A stretch of 33,028 nt of DNA from Patescibacteria group bacterium (GTDB lineage Bacteria; Patescibacteriota; Microgenomatia; UBA1400; PJMF01). A program made the translations under genes and the position numbers. Below, piece by piece: positions 9,666 through 31,013 of the stretch (positions within the stretch are counted from its first letter, which is position 1; each line of letters starts with the position of its first letter). The stretch covers positions 1-33,028 of the forward strand of contig JAHJBU010000053.1 in NCBI GenBank assembly GCA_018813375.1. Direction: 5' to 3'. The notes beneath the pieces were generated by a model. The model was given only the letters and a program-made list of their open reading frames with translations, made no database searches and was not told the origin of the DNA.

Positions 9666-9752
9666 TAATCTGTTGACTTCTCTATTTGTCCACTCAGGGT
9701 ATTCTAAGTAAGTTAGCCAATCAATTCGTCCGAATTCATACCATTTCTCGAG
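9654..9752 (-). pseudogene. orphan 3' gene remnant (…LEKWYEFGRIDWLTYLEYPEWTNREVNRLLRF*); paralogous remnant at 15133-15234
   Basis: The minus-strand frame gives a 32-codon tail with no start. A second copy encodes LLERWYEFGRIDWVNELEYPEWTMKEVNRFLQY*. The nucleotide core CCAATCAATTCGTCCGAATTCATACCAT is identical in both. Confidence 0.45.
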
Positions 9753-9778
9753 CCAGATGGCACTTAATATACCAAGTT
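9750..9778 (+). repeat. junction hairpin module 3 (GAGCCAGATGGCACTTAATATACCAAGTT)
   Basis: The same module follows junction motifs at 12587-12613 (…GAGCCAGTTGGTACTTAATATACCAAGTT) and 24121-24149 (…AGCTAAGTTGGCACTTAATATACCTAATT). The best copy folds as TTGGTA-cttaata-TACCAA. Confidence 0.5.
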
Positions 9779-9904
9779 ATTAGTAAGAACAGTTTTAAAT
9801 ATTTTTTGTTATGTAATAATAGGATTATGTTAAAAAAACAATTGCTAATAAATTTATTCGCCGCCCCAATAGTTTCGCTATTGAGTTTAATTTGTCAGGA
9901 CTAA

Positions 9905-10165
9905 TCAAAAAATATCAATGCATAAATTATCTGCTTCCCCAAGAGTAAAACCTCGACCAATAATAGGCTTTGAAAACTTTTCGGCTTCTGCAAAATCTAT
10001 AAAAGTTCTGGGGGTTGGGATCCCAAATCTTTCTAGATGCTTTAAACCAGATATTTTATCAAAATCAAATCTGGGAAAGACTTTTTTTTCCGCATGATCA
10101 GTTGGAGAACCAAATTCTGTCATAGAATACATTCTATCAGAAGTTTTCTCACACCTGGATTTCAT
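9905..10165 (-). CDS. hypothetical protein (86 aa), possibly a gene fragment
   Basis: Track ORF only, with no recognisable motif. It lies between the junction-type modules at 9750 and 10185. Confidence 0.3.
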   Translation of the reverse strand: MKSRCEKTSDRMYSMTEFGSPTDHAEKKVFPRFDFDKISGLKHLERFGIPTPRTFIDFAEAEKFSKPIIGRGFTLGEADNLCIDIF

Positions 10166-10184
10166 ATAAAGTTATGATGAAGAA

Positions 10185-10214
10185 AAGTCCTAACTTGGTC
10201 TAACGCGGGGAGCA
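10185..10214 (+). repeat. cassette-junction motif, copy A
   Basis: AAGTCCTAACTTGGTCTAACGCGGGGAGCA. Confidence 0.8.
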
Positions 10215-10291
10215 TAGAGATTTTAGATTGGTATATCAACTTATTTTTTTAATAAATATTTTGTTTACACCTTTTGATATATAATTTGAGC

Positions 10292-10927
10292 ATGAATAAA
10301 AATTTGGTGGTAGTTTTTGATTTTGACGGGACTATTGCTGATTCAGCACAAGCTACTATTGGCATATTTGATCAACTTTCCAAAGAATTTAATCTTGGTA
10401 AATCAGGGAGATACTTATTCGATATATACCGGGAAAAAGGAGCTAGGGAATTAGTTAAGGAATTAAAAATTCCTCTTAGGAAATTACCCACCTTGCTAAA
10501 GCGATATAGAGAGGAGTCAGCAAGAATAATTAAGGATCTAAAGCCGATAAGGCAAGTTGATGGCATGCTTGAAAAATTGAAAAATGAAGGTTTTGCCCTG
10601 GGAATACTTACTTCTAATTCAGGAGAAAATGTCGGGAAGTTTATTGAGAAAAATAAATTATTTTTTTTTGACTTCATTTATTCAGAGGGAAGCTTTTTTG
10701 GAAAAGATAAAGTAATAAAAAAGATGTTAAAGAATCAGCATCTTGATTCAAAACAAACTATTTACGTTGGTGATGAGGCGCGAGATATTGATGCTGCTAG
10801 AAAAGCTGGGATTAAGGTTATTGCGGCGACTTGGGGCTTCAATTCGGATGAGATCTTAAAGAAGAGTAATCCAGATTATTTAGTAAATAATCCTAAGGAA
10901 TTGGTTGAGATAGTAAAAAAGTTCTAA
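10292..10927 (+). CDS. HAD-superfamily hydrolase (phosphoglycolate phosphatase-like subfamily IA)
   Basis: Motif I VVFDFDGTIADS, motif II GILTSNS, motif IV YVGDEARDIDAARKAG. I prefer ATG 10292 (MNKNLVVV…) over the track TTG start at 10274. The TAA stop lies inside junction motif copy B. Confidence 0.85.
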   Translation: MNKNLVVVFDFDGTIADSAQATIGIFDQLSKEFNLGKSGRYLFDIYREKGARELVKELKIPLRKLPTLLKRYREESARIIKDLKPIRQVDGMLEKLKNEGFALGILTSNSGENVGKFIEKNKLFFFDFIYSEGSFFGKDKVIKKMLKNQHLDSKQTIYVGDEARDIDAARKAGIKVIAATWGFNSDEILKKSNPDYLVNNPKELVEIVKKF

Positions 10928-10948
10928 CTTGGTCCAACCCGGGGAGCA
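10919..10948 (+). repeat. cassette-junction motif, copy B
   Basis: AAGTTCTAACTTGGTCCAACCCGGGGAGCA; contains the TAA stop of the HAD gene. Confidence 0.85.
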
Positions 10949-10983
10949 AGTGATAAAAAAACCTATAGATGGCTATTTTTTTC
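10949..10983. terminator. junction module 2 (degenerate copy of the A-run/hairpin/T-run terminator module)
   Basis: AGTGATAAAAAAACCTATAGATGGCTATTTTTTT aligns with the better copies at 16452, 21698, 15233 and 27653, but the stem is degraded here. It overlaps the stop of the minus-strand Fic gene. Confidence 0.35.
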
Positions 10984-11971
10984 TATCGCGATTTTTAATA
11001 TATTTTTCTACTGCCTGAACGGTAGTTACCCAATTTCGTCCCTGCTTATGAGCTTCCAGCTTTCCATTTCTGGCTAATAAATTTAAATACTCTGCACTAT
11101 AAGGAGTCTTTTTACTGATTTCAGATAAAAATTTAAACTTTTTCTTTTGGTCATTGGTTGGTTGTAGGGCTTTTAAATAAATATCCAACGATCTTTCCAC
11201 AGCCTGAGTCACAAATCTGACTAAAGGCACATACTCACCCTGATCAGCTCTGTCTAAAACTCGGTAGTATTTTTTACGGTCATTTTTAAGCAAAATAGCC
11301 AATGGATAGCCCGCTCGCATTAAGATAATATTCATCATCAATCTGGCAGTCCGGCCATTACCATCAAAAAAGGGATGAATTTTAACTAATTTATGATGAA
11401 ACATAGCTGCCAACTCCACAGAGTGCAATGTCTTTTGATTTTTAGCAAACCAACTCATCAATTTATTCATCTGGTTTGGAACTTGTAAGGCATCTGGAGG
11501 AATATGGTCTGAGCCACCAATTACTACATTCCCAGTTCGGTACTGGCCTGCAAATTCTTCCTCAGTTTTTTTGACCACCAATTGATGAAAACTCTTCAGT
11601 AAGTGTTCTGAAAGAGTTGGTTGTGCCTCATGGCTAATCAAGTCATATAAAAACTCCAGAGCAGCATGATGATCTTTAGCTTCCAGATGATCCTTCAGTG
11701 GCTTGCCCTTAATAGTTAATCCTTCACGAATGACCCAGTAAGTTTCTTTTAAAGTCAAGCTGTTGCCCTCGATTCCATTAGAGTTGCAAGTCATCTCAAT
11801 CTTAAATTGCTCGCGCAGTTTTTTAACAGCTCCAGTAGGAAGTGGACGTAAAGATTGTAAAGTTTTTAGTTTTTGGTCTAAACGGGTTTGTAGGAACTTG
11901 GGTAGATATGTCATATTATTAGTATGGTTTATATTAAAATCAATACTATCCCATATTAAGAAATAAGTCAA
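10973..11971 (-). CDS. Fic/DOC family protein (Fic-1)
   Basis: Fic motif HPFFDGNGRTARLMMN. The start is likely the ATG at 11914 (MTYLPKFLQ…) rather than the track start at 11971. Confidence 0.85.
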   Translation of the reverse strand: MTYFLIWDSIDFNINHTNNMTYLPKFLQTRLDQKLKTLQSLRPLPTGAVKKLREQFKIEMTCNSNGIEGNSLTLKETYWVIREGLTIKGKPLKDHLEAKDHHAALEFLYDLISHEAQPTLSEHLLKSFHQLVVKKTEEEFAGQYRTGNVVIGGSDHIPPDALQVPNQMNKLMSWFAKNQKTLHSVELAAMFHHKLVKIHPFFDGNGRTARLMMNIILMRAGYPLAILLKNDRKKYYRVLDRADQGEYVPLVRFVTQAVERSLDIYLKALQPTNDQKKKFKFLSEISKKTPYSAEYLNLLARNGKLEAHKQGRNWVTTVQAVEKYIKNRDRKK

Positions 11972-11997
11972 GAATTTATTGTAAATTTAGGTTAAAC

Positions 11998-12027
11998 AAG
12001 TCCTAACTTGATCCAGCACGGGGAGCA
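11998..12027 (+). repeat. cassette-junction motif, copy C
   Basis: AAGTCCTAACTTGATCCAGCACGGGGAGCA. Confidence 0.8.
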
Positions 12028-12138
12028 TCAAATATCACGGAAAGACACGCAAAATATACTTGTGTGCTATGGTTAAATAGAAGAATTATTTATGATTTTC
12101 CAGTTTGAATGTTAATCCACAAAAAGATATATTAACTT

Positions 12139-12501
12139 ATGGCTTGGTTTGGTATGTTTAGCTATTACGGCAATATTAGTGAAGAGGGACTTGTGCTTTC
12201 AGATATTTTTGGAAAAAAAATTATCCCCTGGGATGATATCTTGAGAGTAAAAACAACTTCTCACAATGAAGATTTTTGGGCATATATCATAGTCACAAAT
12301 GATAATAAATATATTGTCCGCGCAGATTGTGATGATTTTGAAAGTTTATTAGTAGAAAAAGCACTTCTCGAACTTTATAAAATAAGTAAAATGGATCCTA
12401 AACGTAAAAAAATATGGAAAAAAATAGGTCATTCATATAAACATATAAACTTCCAAGATTGGCTAGACGATAAATTTCATGTATATAACATTGCCAGATA
12501 A
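12139..12501 (+). CDS. hypothetical protein (120 aa)
   Basis: Track ORF that fills the cassette between junction copies C and D. No motif recognised. Confidence 0.55.
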   Translation: MAWFGMFSYYGNISEEGLVLSDIFGKKIIPWDDILRVKTTSHNEDFWAYIIVTNDNKYIVRADCDDFESLLVEKALLELYKISKMDPKRKKIWKKIGHSYKHINFQDWLDDKFHVYNIAR

Positions 12502-12560
12502 CTATCTAATCTGTTTATTTTAAAGTAACCATATTTCAAATATCCCTTTACCCATTTCCT

Positions 12561-12613
12561 AGTTCGAGTAGTGACCAGCCCGTGGAGCCAGTTGGTACTT
12601 AATATACCAAGTT
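12561..12613 (+). repeat. cassette-junction motif, degenerate copy D, plus hairpin module 3
   Basis: AGTTCGAGTAGTGACCAGCCCGTGGAGCCA followed by GTTGGTACTTAATATACCAAGTT. Confidence 0.6.
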
Positions 12614-12698
12614 TAGCTTCATTCAAAGCTTGGAGTGCTGATGTGTCAATCTCCAATAACGACTGCCCTAACGGGTGTGCCTGAAATGCCTCGAATTT

Positions 12699-13142
12699 TT
12701 AATGGATACGCTTCAACTTATCAATTAAATATTGAGCATCTTCTGGATGCATCCGCTTATCTTTCTCATTTTTTCCTTCAAGGAGTTGATCCATAATTCC
12801 TGTTCTTAAAATAACTGCTTTATTAGTAAGATTTTCCTTATCAAGTTGTTTTCTTAACTCATTGCCGGGGATAAATTCATCTTGTAAGTTGTAAAAATCA
12901 ACGACAACTGCCTCGCGTTGAAAATAATCAATAGGAAACTCATTGATCTTTTTACCATCCTTGAGAAAATAATGTGGTGACTGAATATGGGTGCCATCGG
13001 CACTGTTGGTAGAAAAGTTATAACAGAATTCTTTGTCTTTACCAAAAGCACTATAGGGATCACTTATTTGAAGTGGTTTATCGCCAGGGTAAACCCAGTT
13101 TCCCATCCACATTGTGATATCGATTATTTTCATACACCTCAT
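12699..13142 (-). CDS. cyclase-family (kynurenine formamidase-like) protein, apparently C-terminally truncated
   Basis: IIDITMWMGNWVYPGDKP … ADGTHIQSPHYF … REAVVVDF … AVILRTG follows the putative-cyclase pattern (DLS…PG.P; H.GTH.D.P.H; avv.D; lrTG). The protein ends ~50 aa before the usual C-terminus. Confidence 0.5.
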   Translation of the reverse strand: MRCMKIIDITMWMGNWVYPGDKPLQISDPYSAFGKDKEFCYNFSTNSADGTHIQSPHYFLKDGKKINEFPIDYFQREAVVVDFYNLQDEFIPGNELRKQLDKENLTNKAVILRTGIMDQLLEGKNEKDKRMHPEDAQYLIDKLKRIH

Positions 13143-13222
13143 GGTATCATAAACTGACTAAGCGAAGGTTTAACTTTCTCTATTTCCTCTTCGATTTGAG
13201 CAACAAGCCTAAAGTTTTCCTT
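13139..13222 (-). pseudogene. orphan 3' gene remnant (…ENFRLVAQIEEEIEKVKPSLSQFMIP*), ATGA-coupled to the cyclase-like gene; paralogous remnant at ~24590-24655
   Basis: The minus frame is bounded upstream by TAG and has no start codon. The second copy encodes …DLRLVAQIGEEIEKVYYL…. The two share TTTGAGCAACAAGCCTAA and differ mostly at third codon positions (gag/gaa, ata/atc, gtt/gta). Confidence 0.45.
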
Positions 13223-13265
13223 CTAATATAAAATCAAGTACGTTTTTGTTAGAATAATATTCAAT

Positions 13266-13781
13266 ATGGAACAACAAAAATGTTATGAGAATTACCCTGC
13301 TTGGATTGTAGTAATCTCAAATCTTATTTCATTTTCCACATATTTCATAGGCGGGTTTATTGTTTACCAAATTGGTTCCTTGTGGCTCGCGTTATACATA
13401 CTATATATCTTAATTTTGGAATTAAAATTGTTGGGGGGACATTGTGTGAACTGTTACTACTACGGAAAGATCTGTGCTTTTGGGAAAGGAAGATTAAGCA
13501 GCTTATTCTTCAAAAAAGGTGAATCAAGTAAATTTTGTAAAAATAAAATGACCTGGAAAGATATTGTTCCAGACTTTCTGGTTTCAGTTATACCTATCAT
13601 TGTCGGAATTATCTCCCTAATAATTCATTTCAACTGGTTAATCCTGTTTTTTATGGTGTTACTTTTTATTCTTGGGTTTTCTGGAAGCGCAATAGTAAGA
13701 AGTCAGCTGGCATGTAAATTTTGTAAGCAACGGAAACTAGGGTGTCCAGCTGAAAAATTATTTGAAAAAACTAAAAAGTGA
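13266..13781 (+). CDS. Cys-rich integral membrane protein (about 4 TM segments)
   Basis: Track ORF with long hydrophobic segments and CxxC pairs (CVNCYYYGKIC; CKFCKQRKLGC). Confidence 0.65.
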   Translation: MEQQKCYENYPAWIVVISNLISFSTYFIGGFIVYQIGSLWLALYILYILILELKLLGGHCVNCYYYGKICAFGKGRLSSLFFKKGESSKFCKNKMTWKDIVPDFLVSVIPIIVGIISLIIHFNWLILFFMVLLFILGFSGSAIVRSQLACKFCKQRKLGCPAEKLFEKTKK

Positions 13782-13807
13782 TTTACATAGTGGCAGTGTG
13801 AGCAAGC

Positions 13808-13837
13808 ATCTTAATCTGATTTGGTCTTATCGAGCTT
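13808..13837 (+). repeat. possible highly degenerate cassette-junction motif
   Basis: TCTTAATCTGATTTGGTCTTATCGAGCT aligns loosely with (AG)TCTTAACTTGGTCCAAC…GAGC. It sits exactly between the membrane-protein gene and the RhuM pseudogene. Confidence 0.3.
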
Positions 13838-13874
13838 TTCCTGTCCATATTAAAACTTAGTATCAAAATAAATT

Positions 13875-14600
13875 ATGGCTAAACAATTGCAAAAACCAAC
13901 TAAACGTCTCGAAATCGATACCTTTAAGCGTGAGTCGGATTTCCTGCTGTACACCACTCCTGATGGTAAGGTTAGGTTGGAAATTTTTGTTAAGGATGAA
14001 AATATTTGGTTAACTCAAGGAAAAATTGACCAACTTTTTGGAGTTCAGCGACCAGCTGTTACAAAACACCTAATAAATATTTTTGAAAGTGGTGAGCTTG
14101 AGGAAAATTCAGTTAGTTCTATTTTGGAACATACCACTCAACATGGCGCTATGAAAGGAAAAACTCAAAAATAAAGTGTTAAATACTACAACCTCGATGC
14201 CATTATCTCTGTTGGTTATCGAGTCAACTCAGCTCAAGCTACCCACTTTCGTATTTGGGCAACGGAGCGGCTAAAAGAATACATCATTAAAGGCTTCATT
14301 ATGGATGATGAGCGACTCAAGGACCCACAGCGGATTTTTGGCAAGGATTATTTTAGAGAACTACTTGAGAGGATCCGCTCGATCCGTGCCAGTGAGCGCC
14401 GAATTTACCAGCAGATTACGGATATTTTTGCAGAGTGCAGTATCGACTATGATTCTCACTCTCAAACCACCAAGGACTTTTTTGTCACCGTTCAAAATAA
14501 ATTCCACTTTGCCATAACATGCCATACGGCTGCCGAGATTATTGATGAACGAGTTGATCGTAAGCGACCCAATATGGGGCTTGCAACTTGGAAACAAGCA
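13875..14600 (+). pseudogene. RhuM-family virulence-associated protein, with an in-frame TAA at 14172-14174 and a 3' truncation
   Basis: Track ORFs 13875-14174 and 14301-14696 are in the same frame. Reading through the TAA gives …GKTQK*SVKYYNLDAIISVGYRVNSAQATHFRIWATERLKEYIIKGF…, the conserved RhuM core. Family similarity stops near …GLATWKQAP (~14600), where the minus-strand tspO gene begins to overlap. Confidence 0.75.
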
Positions 14601-14624
14601 CCAGTTTTATTTAATTCTAATTCT

Positions 14625-15095
14625 TCAATTCAAAACCACAATCGCCGCATTGAGCAAGGTGGCAAAACTAACCCACAAGAGGTACGGTACGAGTAAATAC
14701 AAAGCCAATCGAGATAATGGATAAAATTTCTTCATAGTCATCACGATCAACACCCACATCGCCACAATTACGATTAGTCCTAATAAAGGCGCTCTGAGTC
14801 CAAAAAAGATAGGTGACCAGATAAAGTTAAGACCAAGTTGCGCTAAAAAGTATTTGCCCGCGGTAGCAATCTTCTTTTTCTGCCAGCCTTGCTTCCAAAT
14901 CAAATAAAAAGAAACTCCCATCAGGAAGTATAAAAGTGTCCAGACTGGTCCAAATAGCCAGTTGGGCGGAGCAAAGAATGGCTTGTTAAGTGTGGCGTAC
15001 CAAGTAGGGATAGCAGAGATGGTAAATAGTGTACCCAGAAAACCCACTAGTTCACAGCCAACCACAGAAATAATAAGTTTGGGCAAGTCTTTCAT
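14625..15095 (-). CDS. tspO: TspO/MBR family tryptophan-rich sensory protein
   Basis: 156 aa, five TM segments. WYATLNKPFFAPPNWLFGPVWTLLYFLMG and LLVPYLLWVSFATLLN are characteristic of the family. Confidence 0.85.
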   Translation of the reverse strand: MKDLPKLIISVVGCELVGFLGTLFTISAIPTWYATLNKPFFAPPNWLFGPVWTLLYFLMGVSFYLIWKQGWQKKKIATAGKYFLAQLGLNFIWSPIFFGLRAPLLGLIVIVAMWVLIVMTMKKFYPLSRLALYLLVPYLLWVSFATLLNAAIVVLN

Positions 15096-15132
15096 CTACC
15101 TACAGTATGAAACAAATTCGCAAAATGGGCAA

Positions 15133-15234
15133 TCAATACTGTAAGAATCGATTCACTTCCTTCATCGTCCACTCGGGATACTCCAGCTCATTCACCCAAT
15201 CAATTCGTCCGAATTCATACCATCGTTCGAGCAA
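15133..15234 (-). pseudogene. orphan 3' gene remnant (LLERWYEFGRIDWVNELEYPEWTMKEVNRFLQY*), paralog of 9654-9752
   Basis: See 9654-9752. It is joined at GAGC to terminator module 2. Confidence 0.45.
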
Positions 15235-15264
15235 ATGATAAAAAGACCTATGAATAGGTTTTTT
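15233..15264. terminator. junction module 2: A-run / hairpin / T-run intrinsic terminator
   Basis: AAATGATAAAAAGACCTATGAATAGGTTTTTTAT; stem ACCTA/TAGGT. Confidence 0.5.
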
Positions 15265-15305
15265 ATTTAAACATATTTTGTTCATCAAAATTAATATATT
15301 TCATA

Positions 15306-15359
15306 GTTTACAATTAAGTTTACAAAAGGGTTTACAATTAATTGTTTTATCTATATACT
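15306..15359 (+). promoter_or_regulatory. three GTTTACAA direct repeats at exact 12-nt period, overlapping a candidate promoter of Fic-2
   Basis: GTTTACAA occurs at ~15306, 15318 and 15330. The third supplies TTTACA, 17 nt upstream of TATACT (~15354); the ATG is at 15386. Confidence 0.45.
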
Positions 15360-15385
15360 ATTTTTAGTATTTAAAAAATAAGAGC

Positions 15386-16405
15386 ATGTTTCAACCTAAG
15401 TTTACCCTAACTTCATTGCTTCTAGACAATCTTTCTAAAATTGAAAGATTCTATGGGCAGTTAGAGGCTCTTAAAATTCCCAAAAAACTAGAACTTAATT
15501 TAGAACGAGATAATTTGATTCAATCAACTTATGTTTCAAATAGTATCGAAGGAAACCCATTGTCACTGCCAGAAGTTACTAATTTACTCTTAGATGGCAG
15601 AGTGCCAGCAAATCGTGATGAAAAAGAAGTTAAAAACTATTTTGAGCTCCTTAAGAATTTGCCAAATATGACTACTAAATATTTAGATCTTGGATTAGTG
15701 ACAGATCTTCATTCTAAGTTATTAGTTGGAGTGAATGATGAAATTGCTGGGAAAATTAGAAATAAAAAAGTGGTAGTCGGTGGATATAAAAAAAATGATG
15801 GTGAGCTTAAGCTAGTGGTTAAGCACGATCCCCCTTATCATAAACAAGCACAAATAGGCGATTACTTGACTAAGTTACTATCTTGGTCAAATGAATCGTC
15901 AGAACAAGCAATTTTAAAAGCTGGAATATTTCATCATCAATATGTTTACCTGCATCCCTTTATGGATGGTAATGGTCGGACTTGTCGCTTATTAACAGCT
16001 TTCGTTTTGTTAAAAAATGAGTATCAAATTAATAAATACTTTGTTTTAGATGATTACTATGACTTGGACAGAAAAGAGTACTCAGATAAACTAAATAGTG
16101 CTGATCAAGGTGATAAAACAGAGTGGCTAGAATACTTTACGAGTGGAGTTAGGTATTCCTTACAAAGTTCATTGGGTCGGGTTAATAACATGATGAAAAC
16201 TTTAAAAGTTGAAAATAGACCTACTTCTAAAGAAACAGAAGTTTTAGCTTTTCTTGAACAGAATCAGCAAATCACTTCCAGTGATTTAGCCGATCACCTT
16301 GAAGTAAGTCGCCAACAAGCTCATAAATTTTTGGCTTCTTTATTGGAAAAAGGATTGATTGATAAAAAAGGTGAAACTAAAAAAAGTTATTATTTTATTA
16401 AGTGA
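15386..16405 (+). CDS. Fic family protein with C-terminal winged-helix domain (Fic-2)
   Basis: Fic motif HPFMDGNGRTCRLLTA. The C-terminal ITSSDLADHLEVSRQQAHKFLASLLEKGLI is HTH-like. Confidence 0.85.
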   Translation: MFQPKFTLTSLLLDNLSKIERFYGQLEALKIPKKLELNLERDNLIQSTYVSNSIEGNPLSLPEVTNLLLDGRVPANRDEKEVKNYFELLKNLPNMTTKYLDLGLVTDLHSKLLVGVNDEIAGKIRNKKVVVGGYKKNDGELKLVVKHDPPYHKQAQIGDYLTKLLSWSNESSEQAILKAGIFHHQYVYLHPFMDGNGRTCRLLTAFVLLKNEYQINKYFVLDDYYDLDRKEYSDKLNSADQGDKTEWLEYFTSGVRYSLQSSLGRVNNMMKTLKVENRPTSKETEVLAFLEQNQQITSSDLADHLEVSRQQAHKFLASLLEKGLIDKKGETKKSYYFIK

Positions 16406-16421
16406 TTCTTAGTAAGTAAAT

Positions 16422-16484: not shown

Positions 16485-16491
16485 GTTTGTA

Positions 16492-24165: not shown

Positions 24166-24591
24166 ATGAAGAAAATACTTCGTGTTGTTGGCATTTTGAT
24201 TATATTTGTAGGTGTTGTCCTCGGAATATTGCAGATCATTGATTCCTTTTCAGATAAAGTTGCTTACGGTAATATTACTAATATTTTTGAGAGAAGAACT
24301 GGAACAGAATATTCGAATGTAAAAACTGGAGGTGTTTATCCTTGCGAGTTAGAAATTACTTACAAAGATAAAAATGGTCAAGGACAGGTAGGCAAAACTC
24401 TATATGAGACGGCCCCATGTTCAAGCTTTTTCAATAGCTATTATAAGATTGGGGATAAAGTAAATATTGTATATAGCGAAAACAATCTATCTAACGTCAA
24501 AATTAACGGTTTATTTGATAGATTTGGATTCTTAATCATATTTCCACTTCTTGGATCAGGATTAATATATTTTTCTAAAAGGTTGCATTAG
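24166..24591 (+). CDS. membrane protein, DUF3592-like topology (TM, beta-rich domain, TM)
   Basis: N-terminal TM ILRVVGILIIFVGVVLGILQII and C-terminal TM FGFLIIFPLLGSGLIYF. The family call is tentative. Confidence 0.55.
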   Translation: MKKILRVVGILIIFVGVVLGILQIIDSFSDKVAYGNITNIFERRTGTEYSNVKTGGVYPCELEITYKDKNGQGQVGKTLYETAPCSSFFNSYYKIGDKVNIVYSENNLSNVKINGLFDRFGFLIIFPLLGSGLIYFSKRLH

Positions 24592-24812
24592 TTAAATAAT
24601 ATACTTTTTCGATTTCTTCCCCTATTTGAGCAACAAGCCTAAGGTCAGAGAAAGCCTTGATAATACAAGACAATTGAGTGGTTATATTATTGTTACGATT
24701 TTTGAGTTGAATTGACGTTAATCGAACCACCATTATATTTATTATTTCCATAAGTTGTTATACTGACTACATAAGGTTATAAATTACCAAAATAAATGGA
24801 GGTGAGAAATAT

Positions 24813-25568
24813 ATGAAAAAATTACTTTTTTTAGTTGCAGTTGCAACAGTCTTTGCATTTACTACTTCTCCTGTTATGGCAACTAATTCATCATCTACAA
24901 CGACTTCGTTTGATTCAATAGTAACTAAAATTCAAGAGGGGGTTGAGTATTTTTTTACCTTTAAGGTAGAGAAAAAAGTTGAGTTATTAGAAAAATATGC
25001 CGAAAAAAGATTAGTTATGACGCAAGAGTATGCAAAAGAAGGTGATGATGAAAAAGTACAAAATACGATGCAAAATTACCTTCAGATAAAAGAAAAACAA
25101 AATAATTTATTGGGCAAAAATGAAGCTGAGGGTGTCTTGGGGGTAGTTCAAGAAAGGACTATTGATCAACAGAAAACAATGGAAGTAATCAAAACTATAG
25201 TTGGTGAAGAAATGAAACAAGAGGTGATGCAGGTTCAAGAACAAGTTGTAAACCAGGTGGTACAAAGAGTTGTAGATGTGAATGGGACAGAGGGAAGGGA
25301 TGAATTTTTTCAGAAAGTTGAACATGTATGGGCTCCTGGGACAGGACCCGGAGGTGAGGCTGGAACAACTTTTGCTCCTGGGACTTCTGGTACTGGCGGC
25401 GGCGGGGTAGTTATTGAAGGAGGATCAATCCAGTTTGCACCTGGGACAGGACCAGGAGGTAATGGGGGTGTAGTGATTGAAGGAGGTGCTGAACAGTATG
25501 CTCCTGGGACTTCAGGAGGAGGAAATAGTGGAGCTGACATTAAGAACGTTGAAGTAGTGGGTAATTAA
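24813..25568 (+). CDS. secreted protein with a Gly-rich repeat C-terminus
   Basis: Strong SD GGAGGTG upstream and a signal peptide MKKLLFLVAVATVFAFTTSPVMA. The C-terminus carries repeats APGTGPGG…GVVIEGG…(F/Y)APGT. Confidence 0.8.
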   Translation: MKKLLFLVAVATVFAFTTSPVMATNSSSTTTSFDSIVTKIQEGVEYFFTFKVEKKVELLEKYAEKRLVMTQEYAKEGDDEKVQNTMQNYLQIKEKQNNLLGKNEAEGVLGVVQERTIDQQKTMEVIKTIVGEEMKQEVMQVQEQVVNQVVQRVVDVNGTEGRDEFFQKVEHVWAPGTGPGGEAGTTFAPGTSGTGGGGVVIEGGSIQFAPGTGPGGNGGVVIEGGAEQYAPGTSGGGNSGADIKNVEVVGN

Positions 25569-25571
25569 TAA

Positions 25572-25599
25572 GCTGGAATAACGTCCACGCGGGGAATCA
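25572..25599 (+). repeat. cassette-junction motif, degenerate copy J
   Basis: GCTGGAATAACGTCCACGCGGGGAATCA; the core GTCCA-CGCGGGGA is retained. Confidence 0.55.
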
Positions 25600-25606
25600 T
25601 TGTAAT

Positions 25607-25637
25607 TACTTTCACTGTTTGATATACTTTCACTGTT
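25607..25637 (+). promoter_or_regulatory. 13-bp direct repeat TACTTTCACTGTT, two copies 18 nt apart, upstream of the AbiEi-like gene
   Basis: Read directly from the sequence (~25607-25619 and ~25625-25637). ATG is at 25654. Confidence 0.4.
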
Positions 25638-25653
25638 AAGTGAATATACCTAT

Positions 25654-26700
25654 ATGAATGAAAATACGCTAATAAATCAGCTTTCAAATAACCTACCTGA
25701 AGGAATATTTCTCGAGGGCTTAGGTATTCCTGCTATGGGTTCAGTTGGACCAGATCGGCAAGGAACTCTTAAAGTGCAAGATAGAGAGTTTCCTATTGCT
25801 ATTGAGGTAAAAAATACAGGAGGAACGGCTACTTTTAGAGAAGCAGCTCGTCAAGTAAAAGCTTATTCTGTTCAAGGCGGATCCATTCCTTTTGTTGCAG
25901 GGCAGTTTTTTGGTGAAAAGACAAGGCAAGTTGCTAAAGAAGAAGGCGTCGGAATTATGGATTTAGCTGGCAACTTCTACCTCAAGAAGGACGATATTTT
26001 AATTGAAAAGATCGTTGAAAAGAACCCATTTACTAAAAAAATTCCTCTCAAGAATCTCTTCGCGCCTATTTCAAGCAGAATAACCAGAGTATTGCTCGTT
26101 CAACCTAAGAAGAGTTGGCTTTTGAGTGAACTTGCTAATGAAGCTAAAGTTAGCCTAGGACAGACACACAAAACTGTTGCTCGTATGATTGAAGAGGAAT
26201 TAGTTGAGTGGAATCAAGACAATAAACTTATTTTGGAAGATCCTACTCGACTACTGGGAGCGTGGAAAGATATGTATCCTTCTTATGAATCAAAAAAGTT
26301 TACTTTTTTCAGTTTCGAACAAGATCAAACTTCACTACTTGACTCTCTGATGAAAAAGGCAGGAGATTTATCCTTTACCTTATCTTTTTTTAGTGGGGCA
26401 GATTTGATTGCGCCGTTCATTAGGGGGGTTAATAAGTTGCAGTTTTATGTTAAACAACCAAGCGATATAGAGCGCTGGAAAGTGTCGTTGGGACTCCAAG
26501 AAGTCAAAAGTGGAGCTAACGTTGAAATATACGTTCCCTATGACGAAGGTGTGTTTTATCAGACACAAAAAATTTCTACTTTTTCTCAAACTGGTATTCC
26601 AATTGTGTCCAATGTTCAGCTGTATATGGACCTGTTTAATAATCCGGCTCGTGGAGCAGAGCAGGCTGAGCACTTGAGAGAATTGAAGCTTAATTTATAA
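25654..26700 (+). CDS. AbiEi-like antitoxin/transcriptional regulator with an N-terminal PD-(D/E)xK-like module
   Basis: A central wHTH-like stretch (WLLSELANEAKVSLGQTHKTVARMIEEELV) and a C-terminal IPIVSNVQLYMDLFNNPARGAEQAEHL resemble AbiEi-family antitoxins. The N-terminal …DREFPIAIEVKN… looks like a D…E-x-K nuclease fold. Confidence 0.5.
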   Translation: MNENTLINQLSNNLPEGIFLEGLGIPAMGSVGPDRQGTLKVQDREFPIAIEVKNTGGTATFREAARQVKAYSVQGGSIPFVAGQFFGEKTRQVAKEEGVGIMDLAGNFYLKKDDILIEKIVEKNPFTKKIPLKNLFAPISSRITRVLLVQPKKSWLLSELANEAKVSLGQTHKTVARMIEEELVEWNQDNKLILEDPTRLLGAWKDMYPSYESKKFTFFSFEQDQTSLLDSLMKKAGDLSFTLSFFSGADLIAPFIRGVNKLQFYVKQPSDIERWKVSLGLQEVKSGANVEIYVPYDEGVFYQTQKISTFSQTGIPIVSNVQLYMDLFNNPARGAEQAEHLRELKLNL

Positions 26701-26710
26701 GTAAGAAACC

Positions 26711-27697
26711 ATGGCACAAACACAAGATGACCGAACTAAAACGACTTTTATCTCAAACATTGCTGATGTTTCTTTGTCACACTTGCTTGAGTTAATGATT
26801 GCTCTTAGTGAATATAGGGAAGGACTAGTGCTTATCGGTGGTTGGGTTCCCTATCTATTGCTCAAGCATTATCAGCCTTCAAGTGTGGATTTTCAGCATA
26901 TCGGTTCTAAAGATATAGATATTGCGGTCAATCCCAAAATTGTCGATGAATCTGGCTATGCCTCTATTTTAGAAATATTAAAGCAACGAAGTTACGAGCC
27001 TAAACTAGATATAAAAGGTAATTCAATTCAACATTCTTTTGTAAAGAATGTCACTACCAACAGAGGTGAAGGGCAAATTCAAATCGATTTCCTGGGCCCT
27101 GAATACGGTGGAACCAAGAAAAGCAAGCGTCATCAACGGATTCAGAATGATTTTCTTGTCAGAAAAGCCAGAGGTGTAGATGTAATGTTTGATCATGCAA
27201 TAGATGTTGTTCTTGAAGGAAAACTTCCTGATGGAGCTGAAGGTCAGACAACCATTAAAATGGCGAATATTGTAGGGATCATGACGATGAAAGGTATTGT
27301 TGTTGGCTCTCGCTATAAGCAGAAAGATGCCTACGATATTCACAGCTTAATTTTATATTACAAATCTGGACCACTTGCTGTGGCAAAAGAAGTCAGGCCG
27401 TTTATTGATAATGGTTTAGTGAAGGAAGCGCTTGAATCTATCCATGAAAAGTTTCGTTCTCGAGAAGCAGAAGGTCCAAGTTGGGTGGCAGATTTCTTGG
27501 AGGCTACCGATGAGCTTAGAGAGCAAATCAAAACACAGGCATACCTGCAGGTCCAACGTTTTTTAACAGCTCTATATGAACTACCTCAGATTTCTGAGGA
27601 AGAAGGTCCTGCAATTCCAGAGGAGATTCCAGATATTGATAGACTTAGAGAGCAAGTGATAAAAAGACCTTTGAATAGGTCTTTTTTAATTATGTGA
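26711..27697 (+). CDS. nucleotidyltransferase, AbiEii/AbiGii toxin-like
   Basis: LVLIGGWVPYLL … IGSKDIDIAV fits the minimal NTase G-S…D-x-D pattern. It lies directly downstream of the AbiEi-like gene. The last ~15 codons read through terminator module 2. Confidence 0.5.
   Translation: MAQTQDDRTKTTFISNIADVSLSHLLELMIALSEYREGLVLIGGWVPYLLLKHYQPSSVDFQHIGSKDIDIAVNPKIVDESGYASILEILKQRSYEPKLDIKGNSIQHSFVKNVTTNRGEGQIQIDFLGPEYGGTKKSKRHQRIQNDFLVRKARGVDVMFDHAIDVVLEGKLPDGAEGQTTIKMANIVGIMTMKGIVVGSRYKQKDAYDIHSLILYYKSGPLAVAKEVRPFIDNGLVKEALESIHEKFRSREAEGPSWVADFLEATDELREQIKTQAYLQVQRFLTALYELPQISEEEGPAIPEEIPDIDRLREQVIKRPLNRSFLIM
27653..27687. terminator. junction module 2 terminator copy, not preceded by the 30-nt junction motif
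   Basis: GAGCAAGTGATAAAAAGACCTTTGAATAGGTCTTTTTT; stem AGACCT/AGGTCT. Confidence 0.6.
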
Positions 27698-27709
27698 TAG
27701 AATACTTGG

Positions 27710-28579
27710 ATGATTAAAAAAAATATTCAAGCAATTATTTTAGATGTAGATGGAGTAATTATTGGTGAGAAGATTGGTTTTAATTCCCCTCATCCTCATC
27801 CAGATGTAATTGCAGCTCTTAAAGAAATTCAAAATAAAGGCATCCCTGTTAGTCTTTGTACCGCTAAACCTCACTTTGCTATTAGTAAAGAAATTAAGGA
27901 TGCCGATTTAGATAATGTTCATATCACAGATGGTGGTGGAGTGATTATTAATCCTTTAGATAATCAGATTGTCACTCAAAATAATGTGCCTACAGAAAGT
28001 GCAGTTAAAGTTATTCAAGCTTTCTTAGATGCTGGAGTTTATACCGAGTTTTACACTGTAGATAATTACGTTATTCAAAAATCACAAGCTGTAGACATTA
28101 CTCAGAAGCACAATCATGTGATTCAAGCTGAACCTAAACAAGTAGACTCTTTAGTAGAAGCTGCCAAACAAGCACAAATTACCAAAATTATGCCCATTGC
28201 AGTTGATGAAGCTGATAGGGAAAATTTAAATAAAATCTTTGAGCCTTTTAAAGATGAGTTAGTCATGAGTTGGGGTGTTCATCCAGTTATTCTTCCACTT
28301 CAATTTGGAATTGTGACTGCTCCAGGAATATCTAAAAAACAGGGTGCGATGGAAATATCCAAAGCCACGGGAATTTCTTTAGAAGATACTTTGGGTGTGG
28401 GTGATAGTGGTAGCGATTGGCAGTTTATTGAAATGTGTGGCTATGGAGCAGTCATGGGTAATGCTAAACAAGACCTAAAAGATTTAGTAGCCACTAAAGG
28501 AGAAGATAGATCATTTGTAGGGCCAAGCGTGGATGAGAATGGGATTTTAGAGATACTTAAGCATTTTGAGTTAATATGA
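27710..28579 (+). CDS. Cof-type HAD-IIB phosphatase
   Basis: Motif I AIILDVDGVI, motif II LCTAKP, and the C-terminal GVGDSGSDWQFIEMCGYGAVMGNA. Confidence 0.85.
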   Translation: MIKKNIQAIILDVDGVIIGEKIGFNSPHPHPDVIAALKEIQNKGIPVSLCTAKPHFAISKEIKDADLDNVHITDGGGVIINPLDNQIVTQNNVPTESAVKVIQAFLDAGVYTEFYTVDNYVIQKSQAVDITQKHNHVIQAEPKQVDSLVEAAKQAQITKIMPIAVDEADRENLNKIFEPFKDELVMSWGVHPVILPLQFGIVTAPGISKKQGAMEISKATGISLEDTLGVGDSGSDWQFIEMCGYGAVMGNAKQDLKDLVATKGEDRSFVGPSVDENGILEILKHFELI

Positions 28580-28687
28580 AACAAAAAAACCTAGAAGGTT
28601 GGAATCGAACTAAATTTTACTCAAGTAGAAAGGTTTGATTTTTTTATACCCCGAATAGGACACTCTAACTTCTGTTATAATTTCCTT

Positions 28688-28858
28688 ATGAAACCACACA
28701 TATCAATCATCACCTTGGGTGTTAAGAATTTAGAGCGTTCTACAAAGTTTTATGAGGATTTAGGATTCCCTGTAGAAAGAAGTGAGGATATCACCTTCAT
28801 AAAAACTTCAAAAGTTACGAGAATGGCTTTGTACAGTCTCGAAAATTTAGCTTATTAG
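28688..28858 (+). pseudogene. VOC/glyoxalase-family gene, N-terminal fragment only (56 codons)
   Basis: MKPHISIITLGVKNLERSTKFYEDLGFPVERSEDITFIKT… is the first beta-alpha-beta-beta-beta module of VOC proteins (full length ~120-130 aa). It is too short for the track. An extended -10 TGTTATAAT sits at ~28672. Confidence 0.6.
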
Positions 28859-28863
28859 TTTAA

Positions 28864-28968
28864 TTATTTTCTGTTGGATATATCTAGTTGATCAATAAGT
28901 ACTCTAATCTCTTCTCTGGCAATAGTCACTAATTTTGATTTATACTCGTTCCGAAACGAGTCCAGCAT
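28864..28968 (-). CDS. small ORF (34 aa, MLDSFRNEYKSKLVTIAREEIRVLIDQLDISNRK), ribbon-helix-helix-like; its 5' end is the junction motif
   Basis: ATG-initiated, not in the track. It is homologous to 29756-29884 and to the frame through 21600-21690. The beta-strand-like KLVTIA followed by a helix resembles an RHH N-terminus. Confidence 0.45.
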   Translation of the reverse strand: MLDSFRNEYKSKLVTIAREEIRVLIDQLDISNRK

Positions 28969-28977
28969 GGGGGAGCG
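28944..28977 (+). repeat. cassette-junction motif, variant copy K
   Basis: ACTCGTTCCGAAACGAGTCCAGCATGGGGGAGCG; the left half forms the hairpin CTCGTT-ccga-AACGAG. Confidence 0.7.
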
Positions 28978-29012
28978 CATAGTACAGACTTCGAAGTATA
29001 ATTAAACAAATT

Positions 29013-29759
29013 ATGTTAGAAAATCAAATTTTGTGTGAACATGAAAAAGCTGACGAACTTAAAGCAAAAGAAAACCTCTGGTCAAAAATAAGAGAGGGAA
29101 TGAGTAGAATATTTTTTCACGATGCTCGACCTCCTTTAAGAAAAAGATTTGTAGATGCTCAATTAATCATTGGTTCTGATCCAGCTTCTACTGAAGATTT
29201 TGAAACAAGAGCTGAGCATATAGCAGAATTGAAAAAATATTATGAGTCTTTTTTTAATCATTTAATGGAAAAAAGGATTGATTTGCAACAAATACAAAAA
29301 ATTTTAATTTTGGGTCCTGGCTATGTAGAAAGCCAGAGTATTTTTCAAGGATTAAAAGCGTGTTGTGATGAGTCTGGAGTTCAATCATTAACTTTAGTTG
29401 ATGGTGATAGAGAAGTTATTGATTATCTTAATAAAATGAAAATTACTGATATGCCTGGGGTAGACGTTATTGTTAATCATATGGATTTTGCTAGCTATTT
29501 AGGTGATGCTAGTAATAGGTTTGATTTAATCGTTGTAGCGAATCCCGGTCCGAATACAACCGATAAAGACTTAGGAGTTAATGAATCCAATCTTGCCATC
29601 GTTCACAACCTTCTTAATAAAAATGGTCTTTTACTTGCACGAGGTGAGGTTGCAGATTTAAATGAGTTTTTAGAGAAATCACAAAATTTTATTTTTTTTA
29701 ACAAATATATTAGTGGTGCTACTATACCTTTTGCTTTTGTTACTTGGAAAAAAGGTTAA
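29013..29759 (+). CDS. class I SAM-dependent methyltransferase-like protein (tentative)
   Basis: ILILGPGYVE (motif I-like), LTLVDGDREV (motif II-like) and FDLIVVANPGP (motif IV-like NPxx). Confidence 0.45.
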   Translation: MLENQILCEHEKADELKAKENLWSKIREGMSRIFFHDARPPLRKRFVDAQLIIGSDPASTEDFETRAEHIAELKKYYESFFNHLMEKRIDLQQIQKILILGPGYVESQSIFQGLKACCDESGVQSLTLVDGDREVIDYLNKMKITDMPGVDVIVNHMDFASYLGDASNRFDLIVVANPGPNTTDKDLGVNESNLAIVHNLLNKNGLLLARGEVADLNEFLEKSQNFIFFNKYISGATIPFAFVTWKKG

Positions 29760-29884
29760 GTTTCAATTTTGTATTGCTGAACTGGTATTGAGAGTAATCT
29801 AGTCAATTGCTCAGTAAATACTTGAGTATCTTCCTTGGTGATTGTCAATAGTTTTGACTCATACCCGTTCCGTAACAAGTTCAC
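29756..29884 (-). CDS. small ORF (42 aa, VNLLRNGYESKLLTITKEDTQVFTEQLTRLLSIPVQQYKIET), paralog of 28864-28968
   Basis: GTG start, not in the track. Compared with the copy at 21600-21690, most differences are third-position synonymous changes in this frame (gga/ggg, tct/tca, tta/ttg, act/aca, att/atc, gtg/gta, cag/caa). Confidence 0.45.
   Translation of the reverse strand: MNLLRNGYESKLLTITKEDTQVFTEQLTRLLSIPVQQYKIET
29866..29884 (+). repeat. cassette-junction motif, partial copy L (left half only; GGGGAGC half replaced)
   Basis: CCCGTTCCGTAACAAGTTCAC aligns with the left half of copies G and K. Confidence 0.5.
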
Positions 29885-29898
29885 TAAGAAAAGTGTTA

Positions 29899-29941
29899 TG
29901 TCGCGATTTATGTCGTGATTCTGTCGTGATTTATGGTATAC
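29899..29941 (+). promoter_or_regulatory. three tandem TGTCGYGATT(T/C)(A) repeats (period 11-12 nt) followed by an extended -10 TGGTATACT, upstream of Fic-3
   Basis: TGTCGCGATTTA TGTCGTGATTC TGTCGTGATTTA TGGTATACT cataat ATG(29949). Confidence 0.5.
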
Positions 29942-29948
29942 TCATAAT

Positions 29949-30992
29949 ATGTATTCGCCTAAATTTATTATTACCCCTCAGCTTAATAATCAGATTGCTC
30001 AAATTGAGAAATTTAAACAAGTGGTTGAGACTAGTCGGATTATTCCTGAACAGGAAATAAGCCTTCGCTATAGATCTATGCTTGAGTCAGTGCATAGCTC
30101 CACTTCGATAGAGGGCAATCCTTTAAGTCCCCAACAAGTCCAAGATGTGATTATTGGTAGAAAAATACGCGCAATAGATCAAGCAGTCATTGAAGTTGAG
30201 AATTACAAAAAAGCTTTAGATTGGTTTGAGCAACGGGTAGAAACAAAAAAAAAGCTGTCAGCTCAAGATGCATTTAAACTTCACTCAATGGTTGTGGATC
30301 GATTATTACCAGCTAAAAAAATTGGGCAAATTAGACCTGGTCAAATTTATATTATTGATGAAATTGGTGATCAAGACATTATTCAGTACACAGGACCAAA
30401 CCCTAGTAAGGTTAAAAGTTTGTTGGACAATTTGTTTTTTTGGATTAAAAATAAAGGCAAAGAACTTCACCCCGTATTATTAGCAGGCATTCTTCACTAT
30501 GAATTTGTCTCAATTCATCCTTTTAGTGACGGCAATGGTCGAGTAACTCGTCTTTTAACTAAACTATTATTATCACTTAATCATTACGACTTCAAAGGTG
30601 TCTTAGTGCTAGATAATTATTATGCTCAAGATAGACTCGCATATTACCAAGCTTTGAGCTTAGGTAGAACTTACTCGCAAAGAAATAAGGCAGACCTTAC
30701 TCCTTGGTTGGAGTATTTTGTTGGCGGGGTAGTAATAGAGGCAGAAGCCTTGGCAGAAGAATTTAGTGTTATTAGTTTAAAAGAGGGGGAAGTACGGGTA
30801 AAGTTATCTAAAGAAGAGATTTCTATTCTTTCTTTTGTTAAACATTTTGGGCAGATTTCGCTGGCTGAAGCTAGGGATATGGTAAAAGGTACTGATAGAA
30901 CTGTTCAGAGAAGGTTAAAAAAATTAGTTGTTGATGGGTTTCTAGAACAACAAGACCAGGCTAGAAGAGCGTACTATAAACTAAAGTCCTAG
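29949..30992 (+). CDS. Fic family protein with C-terminal winged-helix domain (Fic-3)
   Basis: Fic motif HPFSDGNGRVTRLLTK. Same architecture as Fic-2, with similar N-termini (MYSPKFIITPQL vs MFQPKFTLTSLL). The TAG stop lies inside junction copy M. Confidence 0.85.
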   Translation: MYSPKFIITPQLNNQIAQIEKFKQVVETSRIIPEQEISLRYRSMLESVHSSTSIEGNPLSPQQVQDVIIGRKIRAIDQAVIEVENYKKALDWFEQRVETKKKLSAQDAFKLHSMVVDRLLPAKKIGQIRPGQIYIIDEIGDQDIIQYTGPNPSKVKSLLDNLFFWIKNKGKELHPVLLAGILHYEFVSIHPFSDGNGRVTRLLTKLLLSLNHYDFKGVLVLDNYYAQDRLAYYQALSLGRTYSQRNKADLTPWLEYFVGGVVIEAEALAEEFSVISLKEGEVRVKLSKEEISILSFVKHFGQISLAEARDMVKGTDRTVQRRLKKLVVDGFLEQQDQARRAYYKLKS

Positions 30993-31013
30993 CTTGGTTC
31001 AACGCGGGGAGCT
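30984..31013 (+). repeat. cassette-junction motif, copy M (last copy in the window)
   Basis: AAGTCCTAGCTTGGTTCAACGCGGGGAGCT. Confidence 0.8.

Follow-up and report, generated by a model that had tools for sequence, protein, structure and literature searches.

Tandem islands built by large serine recombinases (LSRs) are known, among them the ssrA islands of Dehalococcoides, which carry 20-bp repeats, in which the LSR gene invariably overlaps attL at its 3' end and some of which come without an integrase module (PMC3146451). In the present study we describe a locus with related features within a stretch of 33,028 nucleotides from an uncultured, ultra-small Patescibacteria group bacterium (contig JAHJBU010000053.1, assembly GCA_018813375.1), hereafter referred to as the window. 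We consider it probable that the region from 9.66 kb to 31.0 kb constitutes an accretion array of small integrated modules, the junctions of which are the attachment sites of an LSR family occurring throughout the candidate phyla radiation (CPR). Direct support for the array comes from the homology of its junction motif with the attP site of this family, from hybrid junctions, from recombinase remnants located at junctions, from the confinement of the motif and from polymorphism between strains. We infer that the same LSR family catalyses the movement of those cassettes which do not carry a recombinase gene.

As in the Dehalococcoides islands (DsiB LSR; McMurdie et al. 2011, PMC3146451), the modules are arranged in tandem between same-strand direct repeats of the RNA-gene-3'-end type, the 3' end of the LSR gene overlaps the att site so that the C-terminus of the enzyme changes upon integration, some modules lack an integration module and the accessory cargo is strain-specific. 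In contrast to the window, the Dehalococcoides islands are anchored on a genuine tmRNA gene, possess the shorter repeat of 20 bp as well as a six-gene integration module and extend over several kb or more, the cargo of the vcr island alone amounting to approximately 7 kb (PMC3146451). The window array has no tRNA or tmRNA anchor, its repeat measures 30-65 nt, its modules are mostly 0.5-4 kb in size and hold one to few genes with a promoter of their own, and of the recombinase only debris is present. In staphylococci, CcrAB excises tandem cassettes which resemble the staphylococcal cassette chromosome (SCC) and do not encode a recombinase themselves (PMC11470126). The composite islands of SCC and SCCmec (CcrAB or CcrC LSRs) share with the window the tandem arrangement of cassettes at one locus and same-strand att sites; further likenesses lie in the excision of recombinase-less SCC-like cassettes in trans by Ccr and in the enrichment of defence and accessory cargo (PMC11470126). 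They differ from it in that SCC integrates into the 3' end of rlmH, that the cassettes comprise 24-68 kb and that two recombinases are often needed (PMC11470126); in addition, no att site is known within a ccr gene. Repeated integration at one site, by which older elements are pushed inward, is moreover reminiscent of the accretion of integrative and cis-mobilisable elements at tRNA genes and of the tycheposon islands of Prochlorococcus, where partial tRNA-like repeats and fragmented integrases are likewise left behind (bioRxiv 10.1101/2020.12.28.424599). Unlike the window, these systems mostly make use of tyrosine recombinases, genuine tRNA genes and larger elements, nor do they repeat site, terminator and promoter as a unit of regular 65-nt length.

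With integrons and clusters of attC sites lacking integron integrases (CALINs) the array has in common many small, mostly single-gene cassettes, same-strand sites which follow or overlap stop codons and a similar cargo. It differs from them by the absence of an attC fold and of IntI, by the implication of a serine recombinase, by cassettes endowed with their own promoters and by a double-strand att-type site with a tRNA-end-like core. Compared to the known LSR islands, of which those of Dehalococcoides and the SCC composites come nearest to the array, the distinctive traits are the integron-like miniaturisation, a pseudo-tRNA site without tie to a tRNA gene and the CPR hosts. The genomes of CPR bacteria are tiny, and reports on the acquisition of accessory genes by these bacteria are few; no description of cassette arrays in them was found in the literature searched.

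Junction motif and its copies in the window

The junctions are marked by a 30-mer, AAGTCCTAACTTGGTCCANNCGGGGAGC (also given as AAGTCCTAACTTGGTCCAACCCGGGGAGCA), of which seven near-perfect and about nine variant copies are present between 9.7 kb and 31.0 kb. When up to three mismatches are allowed, the full 30-mer is matched six times, exclusively on the + strand (10185, 10919, 11998, 16422, 20335 and 22824), at a chance expectation of 0.00 calculated from 100 shuffles. The core of the motif, GTCCANCNCGGGGAGC, is found nine times with up to two mismatches, again without exception on the + strand and against 0.01 expected from shuffles, the matches at 12573, 24108 and 30997 adding to those of the 30-mer. 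A weight matrix built from 42 copies of the motif detects seven strong copies, namely at the six positions of the 30-mer and at 30984, and not a single one in the window beyond 10.1-31.1 kb. The first-pass annotation of this DNA had proposed a cassette array bounded by a same-strand site which is limited to about 9.6-31.0 kb, with all copies on the + strand and with the stop codons of the HAD gene and of the third Fic gene (Fic-3) inside the motif. All of this is borne out: copies of one orientation delimit small cassettes, and both stop codons coincide with motif positions 7-9. The remaining copies begin 2-33 nt past a stop codon, where 0-25 nt had been given. The degenerate copies listed at that time are likewise genuine but of heterogeneous type, the one at 13808 being marginal, and the estimate of about 13 cassettes of 0.55-4 kb changes to about 15 intervals of 0.46-3.9 kb. 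The array and its sites are as follows.

9754..31012, + strand: array of about 15 intervals of 0.46-3.9 kb
10185..10214, + strand: canonical motif, junction after 10213; L022 and L024 carry an extra 503-bp cassette at this site
10919..10981, + strand: canonical motif with hairpin/T-run right arm; HAD stop TAA at motif positions 7-9
11998..12027, + strand: canonical motif, matched by 30-mer and weight matrix
12561..12613, + strand: variant site with tRNA-like left arm AGTTCGAGTAGTGACCAGCCCGTGGAGC and right arm CAGTTGGTACTTAATATACCAAGTT
16422..16484, + strand: canonical motif with terminator-like hairpin AAAAAGACCTATAAATAGGTCTTTTT
20335..20364, + strand: canonical motif; HD+Rce1 cassette homologous to L019 up to exactly 20363 (C of GAGC)
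21599..21730, + strand: left arm of the variant "type-B" kind, from the 80-nt repeat family D5 and ending GGGGAG; right arm of terminator type
22824..22880, + strand: canonical motif with a hairpin of different stem (GAGGGA/TCCC)
24095..24149, + strand: half-canonical site AGGTCCAACGCGGGGAGC, then "b" right arm
25572..25598, + strand: degenerate site CGTCCACGCGGGGAATC
27635..27686, + strand: junction ...AGAGAGC/AAGTGATAAAAAGACC..., terminator-type right arm with non-motif left side
28879..28976, + strand: type-B left arm ending ACTCGTTCCGAAACGAGTCCAGCATGGGGGAGC
29798..29895, + strand: type-B left arm, core degenerate
30984..31013, + strand: final canonical motif, Fic-3 stop TAG inside

The sites at 24095 and 25572 retain just the 3' two-thirds of the motif. 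Those at 21666, 28944 and 29866 have in common a different left arm of 80 nt which ends in GGGGAG(C); an assignment of these type-B arms to the tails of another LSR subfamily was dismissed for want of significant similarity. Together with three additional junctions at 9753, 15232 and 27653, the positions at which GAGC directly precedes the junction, all in direct orientation, are 9753, 10213, 10947, 12026, 12588, 15232, 16450, 20363, 21695, 22852, 24123, 27653, 28976 and 31012.

The motif consists of two conserved blocks, AAGTCCTAACTTGGTCCA and CGGGGAGC, which are separated by two to three free bases. In many copies the actual repeat unit comprises about 65 nt, as the motif is followed by 8-14 nt, a conserved hairpin (AAAAAGACCT-N6-AGGTCTTTTT) and a T-run. 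An extended -10-like box, TGRTATAMT, occurs eight times where 1.6 occurrences are expected, and five of the eight are found directly after junctions. Generic promoter and terminator scans were informative only in flagging the conserved hairpins. The orientation of the motif is independent of that of the genes, it is not palindromic and by itself adopts no stable structure, and its likeness to a tRNA acceptor end is limited to the last 11 nt. Neither the window nor the 20 array loci of other contigs described below (L001-L020) contain a tRNA or tmRNA gene according to ARAGORN, and Rfam covariance models matched none of these sequences; the motif was therefore dismissed as a tRNA, tmRNA or known RNA. 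A reading as minus-strand coding sequence ("LPALDQVRT") was also abandoned, as no long open reading frame (ORF) crosses any copy and the variation is not found at third-codon positions; this frame is meaningful only as a tail which the recombinase gene gains after integration. A dif/Xer-type site was rejected since the locus shows no switch in GC skew, and a phage origin since both the motif and close relatives of the recombinase homologue P0010 are absent from IMG/VR contigs.

Sites of integrons (attC) are imperfect inverted repeats of 55-140 nt (R''-L''...L'-R', with GTTRRRY at the 3' end) folded as a bulged hairpin. That the array is a true integron or CALIN with unusual attC sites, served by an IntI tyrosine integrase which is encoded elsewhere, appears extremely improbable to us. 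Same-strand sites after stop codons and the usual accessory cargo (toxin-antitoxin, GNAT, NUDIX) would suit such an interpretation, yet R''/R' pairing is missing, GTTRRRY does not occur within 190 nt of five of the seven canonical copies, and the motif is not spanned by any bulged hairpin common to them. The initial assessment that the site is not a canonical attC is thus supported. Moreover, Pfam searches covering all window ORFs of at least 80 aa and the flanks of three other arrays gave no match to a tyrosine recombinase or Phage_integrase, the extended -10 boxes are carried by the cassettes themselves, and the motif is homologous to the attP of a serine recombinase.

Recombinase remnants and the attachment site within the recombinase gene

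Three remnants of LSR genes, the first of which adjoins an insertion sequence (IS), are present in the window.

3548-4033, - strand: LSR pseudogene (zinc-ribbon and coiled-coil part), 5' side truncated by the IS
4011..5137, + strand: IS element with Mutator-family transposase (4103-5086) and 45-nt terminal inverted repeats, adjoining the LSR pseudogene
9657..9778, - strand: LSR tail remnant, last 37 codons (9657-9767), 68% identity, E 3e-13
15136..15264, - strand: LSR tail remnant, 32 codons (15136-15231), 91% identical to residues 266-297 of P0001, E 2e-15

The first-pass statement that the window contains no recombinase thus stands for tyrosine recombinases but not for LSRs, of which a truncated gene and two tail fragments at junctions are found. 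The ORF 3506-4033(-) shows a weak Zn_ribbon_recom match, and the closely related strain L022 contains a longer form of 3548-4033(-) with 297 codons and an intact tail. For this 297-aa protein 143 homologues were retrieved, the full-length ones of which (about 500-520 aa) comprise Resolvase, Recombinase and Zn_ribbon_recom domains; those carrying names stem from WWE3, Parcubacteria and Pacebacteria, and it is on these names and on the array contig L001 described below that the assignment to the CPR is based. In both tail remnants the homology starts at a GAGC junction. The remnant at 9657-9767(-) contains an attP-left arm which ends in ...CTCGAGC at 9753 and is followed by a "b" right arm, forming the left edge of the array, while the remnant at 15136-15231(-) ends in ...GTTCGAGC at 15232, where a right arm of terminator type adjoins it.

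The C-termini of the 120 homologues listed share ...RPIWL and subsequently split into classes. The first class consists of a conserved "free" tail, xWDDFRTLKWIDSIxxPEL..., the second of tails of the form (P/R)G.DSN(L/Q).P, which correspond to the reverse complement of tRNA T-loops, the third of tails which read as the canonical motif in reverse complement (P0038) and the fourth of tails matching the 12561-type variant (P0003, P0035, P0058), the left arm of which is encountered elsewhere in fusion with recombinase genes (P0003, P0058/L033). On the DNA level, integrated and free LSR genes alike show constant DNA to the right of GAGC (CAGATGGGACGC...), whereas to its left the free tail (L022), a tRNA-like 3' end (GGTTCGAATCCTCGCCGGGGAGC followed by CA; L034), unrelated DNA (L026) or motif variants (L033) are found. 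In L029 the homology of one LSR ends 4 nt short of the 3' end of a tRNA-Ser. In ungapped comparison the attP-left arm of free-form LSR genes agrees with the motif in 20 of 29 (L028) and 19 of 29 positions (L035), both values exceeding those of all 300 shuffles. A background score of at least 14 bits on the motif matrix is reached at 2 of 156,366 positions, both of which are LSR junctions.

In intact homologues, attP is situated within the last approximately 45 codons of the LSR gene. We think it likely that the 30-nt motif represents the conserved left half-site and that the right half-site is made up of 8-14 nt followed by hairpin and T-run. The half-site of serine integrases measures 25 bp and is bipartite (PMC3783163), to which the approximately 29 bp in two blocks left of the junction fit. 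All right arms examined, from array sites and LSR attPs alike, possess a hairpin and T-run 8-14 nt from GAGC with stems of varying sequence; hence, the site as a whole mimics a tRNA 3' end plus terminator. Other members of the family use genuine tRNA 3' ends as attB. Strand exchange at or next to GAGC, including the exact crossover dinucleotide, is what we infer.

On this basis the junctions of the window can provisionally be read as different products. Junction 9753, which combines an LSR-tail left arm with a "b" right arm, reads as an attP-like remnant, the first approximately 10 nt of the "b" right arm matching the right side of the LSR attP (P-right). The junctions at 12588 and 24123, with a motif-type left arm and a "b" right arm, read as attL-like, and that at 15232, with an LSR-tail left arm and a terminator right arm, as an attR-like hybrid. 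The canonical sites, in which the motif left arm is followed by a terminator or another right arm, read as array sites. The idea of an undescribed recombination system, put forward initially, has to be given up since the motif is homologous to the attP half-site within the LSR family's own gene and tandem islands of LSRs are known.

Several further observations concern the recombinase family. The ORF 5156-5653(-) was considered as the missing recombinase N-terminus and rejected, as it constitutes an ORF apart, terminated by a stop codon of its own, in which recombinase domains are lacking and only a weak hint of peptidase C15 is seen. About 470 bp of the recombinase pseudogene which are kept by L022 are missing from the window and from L021 (window 3548/3556 versus L022 3100-3573), which constitutes a second strain-level indel outside the array. 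The C-terminal tail of the recombinase homologue P0008 (residues 199-235) matches 24602-24712(-) of the window with 49% identity (E 2e-5). This indicates that in another genome an LSR element has integrated beside a sequence like window 24602-24740, which itself may be the unoccupied target; a related repeat, D13, is present in the 24602-24740 region and also at 13173-13215. A small gene of HTH_17/MerR (excisionase) type is situated directly upstream of the LSR fragment in L033 (3397-3609) and about 2 kb upstream in L026 (389-577), where it is a candidate for a directionality factor. A counterpart in the window was not recognised. Many recombinase gene calls in the homologue list end at ...WLPG or ...LLRG on short contigs. 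Apparently, assemblies break at the repeated site, and metagenome assembly may thereby systematically part arrays from their recombinases.

Related arrays, strain differences and proposed module gain

A motif scan of species-representative genomes yielded a single contig, L001, from a metagenome-assembled genome of Candidatus Paceibacterota, in which eight strong motif copies and one variant site are accommodated within 7.7 kb, in most cases with the hairpin behind them and a single gene enclosed. Scanning of metagenomes added 19 loci, which brings the total to 20 other CPR contigs with arrays; L005 and L007 jointly correspond to L001. Across these loci the motif hardly varies. Two subfamilies can be told apart, the second of which is extended by 12 nt upstream (ttCCACACACAA) and shows variable right sides. 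In a contig of 196 kb every exact copy is located within one array of about 13 kb, and in a contig of 86 kb the copies are again all found at one locus. The motif is thus confined to arrays, without spread over the genome at large, and its clustering on long contigs shows that it is not a dispersed element of the repetitive extragenic palindromic (REP) type.

The sister strains provide a direct view on changes of the array. Five near-identical strains were recovered, the contig JAHJGL010000103.1 of GCA_018824425.1 being 99.97% identical to the window over 17.7 kb. In L022 and L024 (GCA_043824855.1) an additional unit of 503 bp is present exactly at the window site 10185-10213, with flanks of 99.4-99.9% identity. 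This unit, which is bounded by two motif copies, consists of the right-arm hairpin, a gene of 102 aa and the second motif copy. Cassette-level differences with breakpoints in the motif, which had been proposed as a check, therefore exist. In comparisons between arrays, cassettes are found beside varying neighbours, and homology repeatedly breaks at GAGC. The HD+Rce1 cassette is 92% identical to its counterpart in L019, the homology ends at 20363 and the neighbours beyond differ; L001 and L008 have an upstream cassette in common with homology ending at GAGC (L001 2897 versus L008 5693), and L008 and L013 share one 295-aa cassette before they diverge. Further breakpoints of this kind are found between window positions 16444 and 21690 and at the junctions 15232 and 27653. 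A more distant relative, L037, contains the left flank of the window at 79% identity and a different set of cassettes at the same locus. It is devoid of canonical motifs and contains instead four same-strand LSR tail remnants (E 7e-17 to 1e-4), three of which end in ...CATACCATCGTTCGAGC at cassette boundaries.

These comparisons bear on three alternative explanations. According to the first, the motif is a REP-like or terminator-associated repeat or an RNA element of 3' untranslated regions without any role in recombination, and the polymorphism results from homologous recombination between repeats. A terminator-like hairpin does follow many copies and the one indel recombined inside the repeat; the restriction to one clustered locus per contig without dispersal, a motif orientation uncoupled from that of the genes, the lack of an Rfam match and of stable structure in the motif itself, and the hybrid junctions with recombinase gene ends nevertheless make this explanation very unlikely. 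No gene of a REP-associated tyrosine transposase (RAYT) was seen among the window ORFs. According to the second, to which we give similarly little credence, the array was built by another mechanism, and LSR elements merely exploit the motif as an attB resembling a tRNA. LSR genes fused to canonical-type motifs (P0038 in L030, L033 and L002) and arrays without intact LSR agree with this, but in L037 the LSR tail arms themselves form the cassette boundaries in the absence of a canonical motif, and the array sites reproduce the entire attP architecture beyond a target core.

The third alternative regards the intervals as fossil tandem islands, once full recombinase-bearing elements at a tRNA-like site, which have since been stripped of their recombinase genes by deletion, are now static save for repeat-mediated deletions and are not mobilised in trans. 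Remnants and pseudogenes of LSRs are indeed common (in the window, in L037 and among many truncated homologues), and the 503-bp indel resembles a repeat-mediated event rather than a crossover at GAGC. On the other hand, L001 and L019 contain nine and five consecutive intact units, each with the 65-nt site, a promoter and usually one gene, without recombinase debris, the same cassettes occur beside different neighbours in different arrays, and the near-invariance of the motif in distant contigs argues for continuing selection. On balance we hold fossil islands to be unlikely.

Accretion of modules by the LSR family could proceed in the following way. Elements of the family would integrate with the crossover at or beside GAGC, whereby the C-terminal tail of the recombinase would be detached and a hybrid site left at either end. 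As every junction would keep a motif-type left arm, further modules could enter and stack in one orientation. Modules without recombinase, be it that they lost it or never had one, would survive as cassettes of one gene with a promoter of its own; presumably these would be moved in trans, and they would also be lost via recombination between repeats.

Several points weigh against LSR-driven accretion. Neither the window nor the array loci L001-L020 contain an intact LSR gene. Among these loci L002 alone shows a weak LSR-like match of 49 residues, and Pfam revealed no recombinase in the flanks of three further arrays. Full-length homologues are present in other CPR contigs. The single site of the window exhibits the internal polymorphisms (positions 16, 20 and 21) of the right-hand copy of L022, which means that recombination in the 503-bp event fell within motif positions 1-15 rather than at GAGC. 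This speaks for recombination between repeats, homologous or slipped, or for gene conversion. Motif positions 16-21 vary independently of either flank, the three type-B left arms bear no significant resemblance to LSR tails, and the array has no tRNA gene as its anchor in the window. Finally, canonical LSRs recombine attP with attB only, and recombination between near-equivalent sites is not obviously allowed by this classical directionality.

Seen together with its relatives on no fewer than 20 further contigs, the locus indicates a recurrent stacking and swapping of single accessory genes (Fic toxins, NUDIX, HAD, EamA, AbiE). Tentatively, and with considerably more doubt than attaches to the array, we envisage an integron-like gene-capture platform of CPR bacteria which is run by an LSR. 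In such a platform promoter-bearing cassettes with an attP mimic of about 65 nt would be exchanged in trans between tRNA-independent arrays, and the cutting and re-joining of the C-terminal tail of the recombinase might act as a switch between its free and integrated state. If mobilisation in trans indeed takes place, serine-recombinase chemistry would have converged on the layout of integrons. The motif and its hairpin together with the recombinase family (P0002, P0010 and similar proteins) represent a defined pair of site and enzyme for experiments and possibly a tool for genome engineering.

Cargo and neighbouring genes

The cargo of the array includes HAD, three Fic proteins, a bacterial PH-domain (bPH) gene, cyclase and RhuM fragments, TspO, two NUDIX proteins, HD, an Rce1-like protein, EamA, ATP-grasp, DUF5667, AbiEi with a nucleotidyltransferase and a methyltransferase-like gene. 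One NUDIX gene is interrupted by a second IS (16671-18187) with a 449-aa transposase (HTH_28 match) and terminal inverted repeats of about 58 nt. On both sides of this IS AATGGAAAACAAAT is duplicated, and its removal restores the frame ...YQLPNGKQI/DDFYVTT... A duplication of 175 nt with 94% identity (16444-16618 and 21690-21864) spans terminator, promoter and the first approximately 14 NUDIX codons; its second copy is fused upstream of EamA, which suggests that the 5' ends of cassettes are reshuffled. Ahead of the HD gene, at 19131-19303, the 3' end of a Hydrolase_3 (HAD) gene is found which is 86% identical to 28417-28589. As L019 possesses a full HAD gene at the position of this remnant, the window module has undergone an internal deletion.

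The ORF 14301-14696 gives a RhuM-family Pfam match (131 aa), and the adjoining 99-aa ORF 13875-14174, which has no match and overlaps the end of tspO, may be the other half of a broken gene. The cyclase-like ORF 12699-13142(-) is truncated in appearance. Three of the related arrays, L001 (19-501), L008 (1-481) and L013 (5862-6144), end in the same gene of a Cys-rich protein of 63 aa, which is followed by a type-B-like site, CCGTTCCACAGCGAGTCTTGTGGGAGGAGC joined to AAGTGATAAAAAGACC.

The left flank of the window (1-9600) is accessory or defence-like and encodes RloB (partial, seen in L021), Schlafen/AlbA_2, PRiA4_ORF3, an AAA_14/DUF4143 ATPase and a cell-wall hydrolase. L037 has SNF2-helicase and RNase_H_2 genes ahead of this flank, together with a further recombinase tail remnant (6497-6592). 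Tandem repeats of 63 nt and 24 nt at 25332-25526 correspond to the Gly/Pro-rich C-terminal stretch of the DUF5667 protein (24813-25568).

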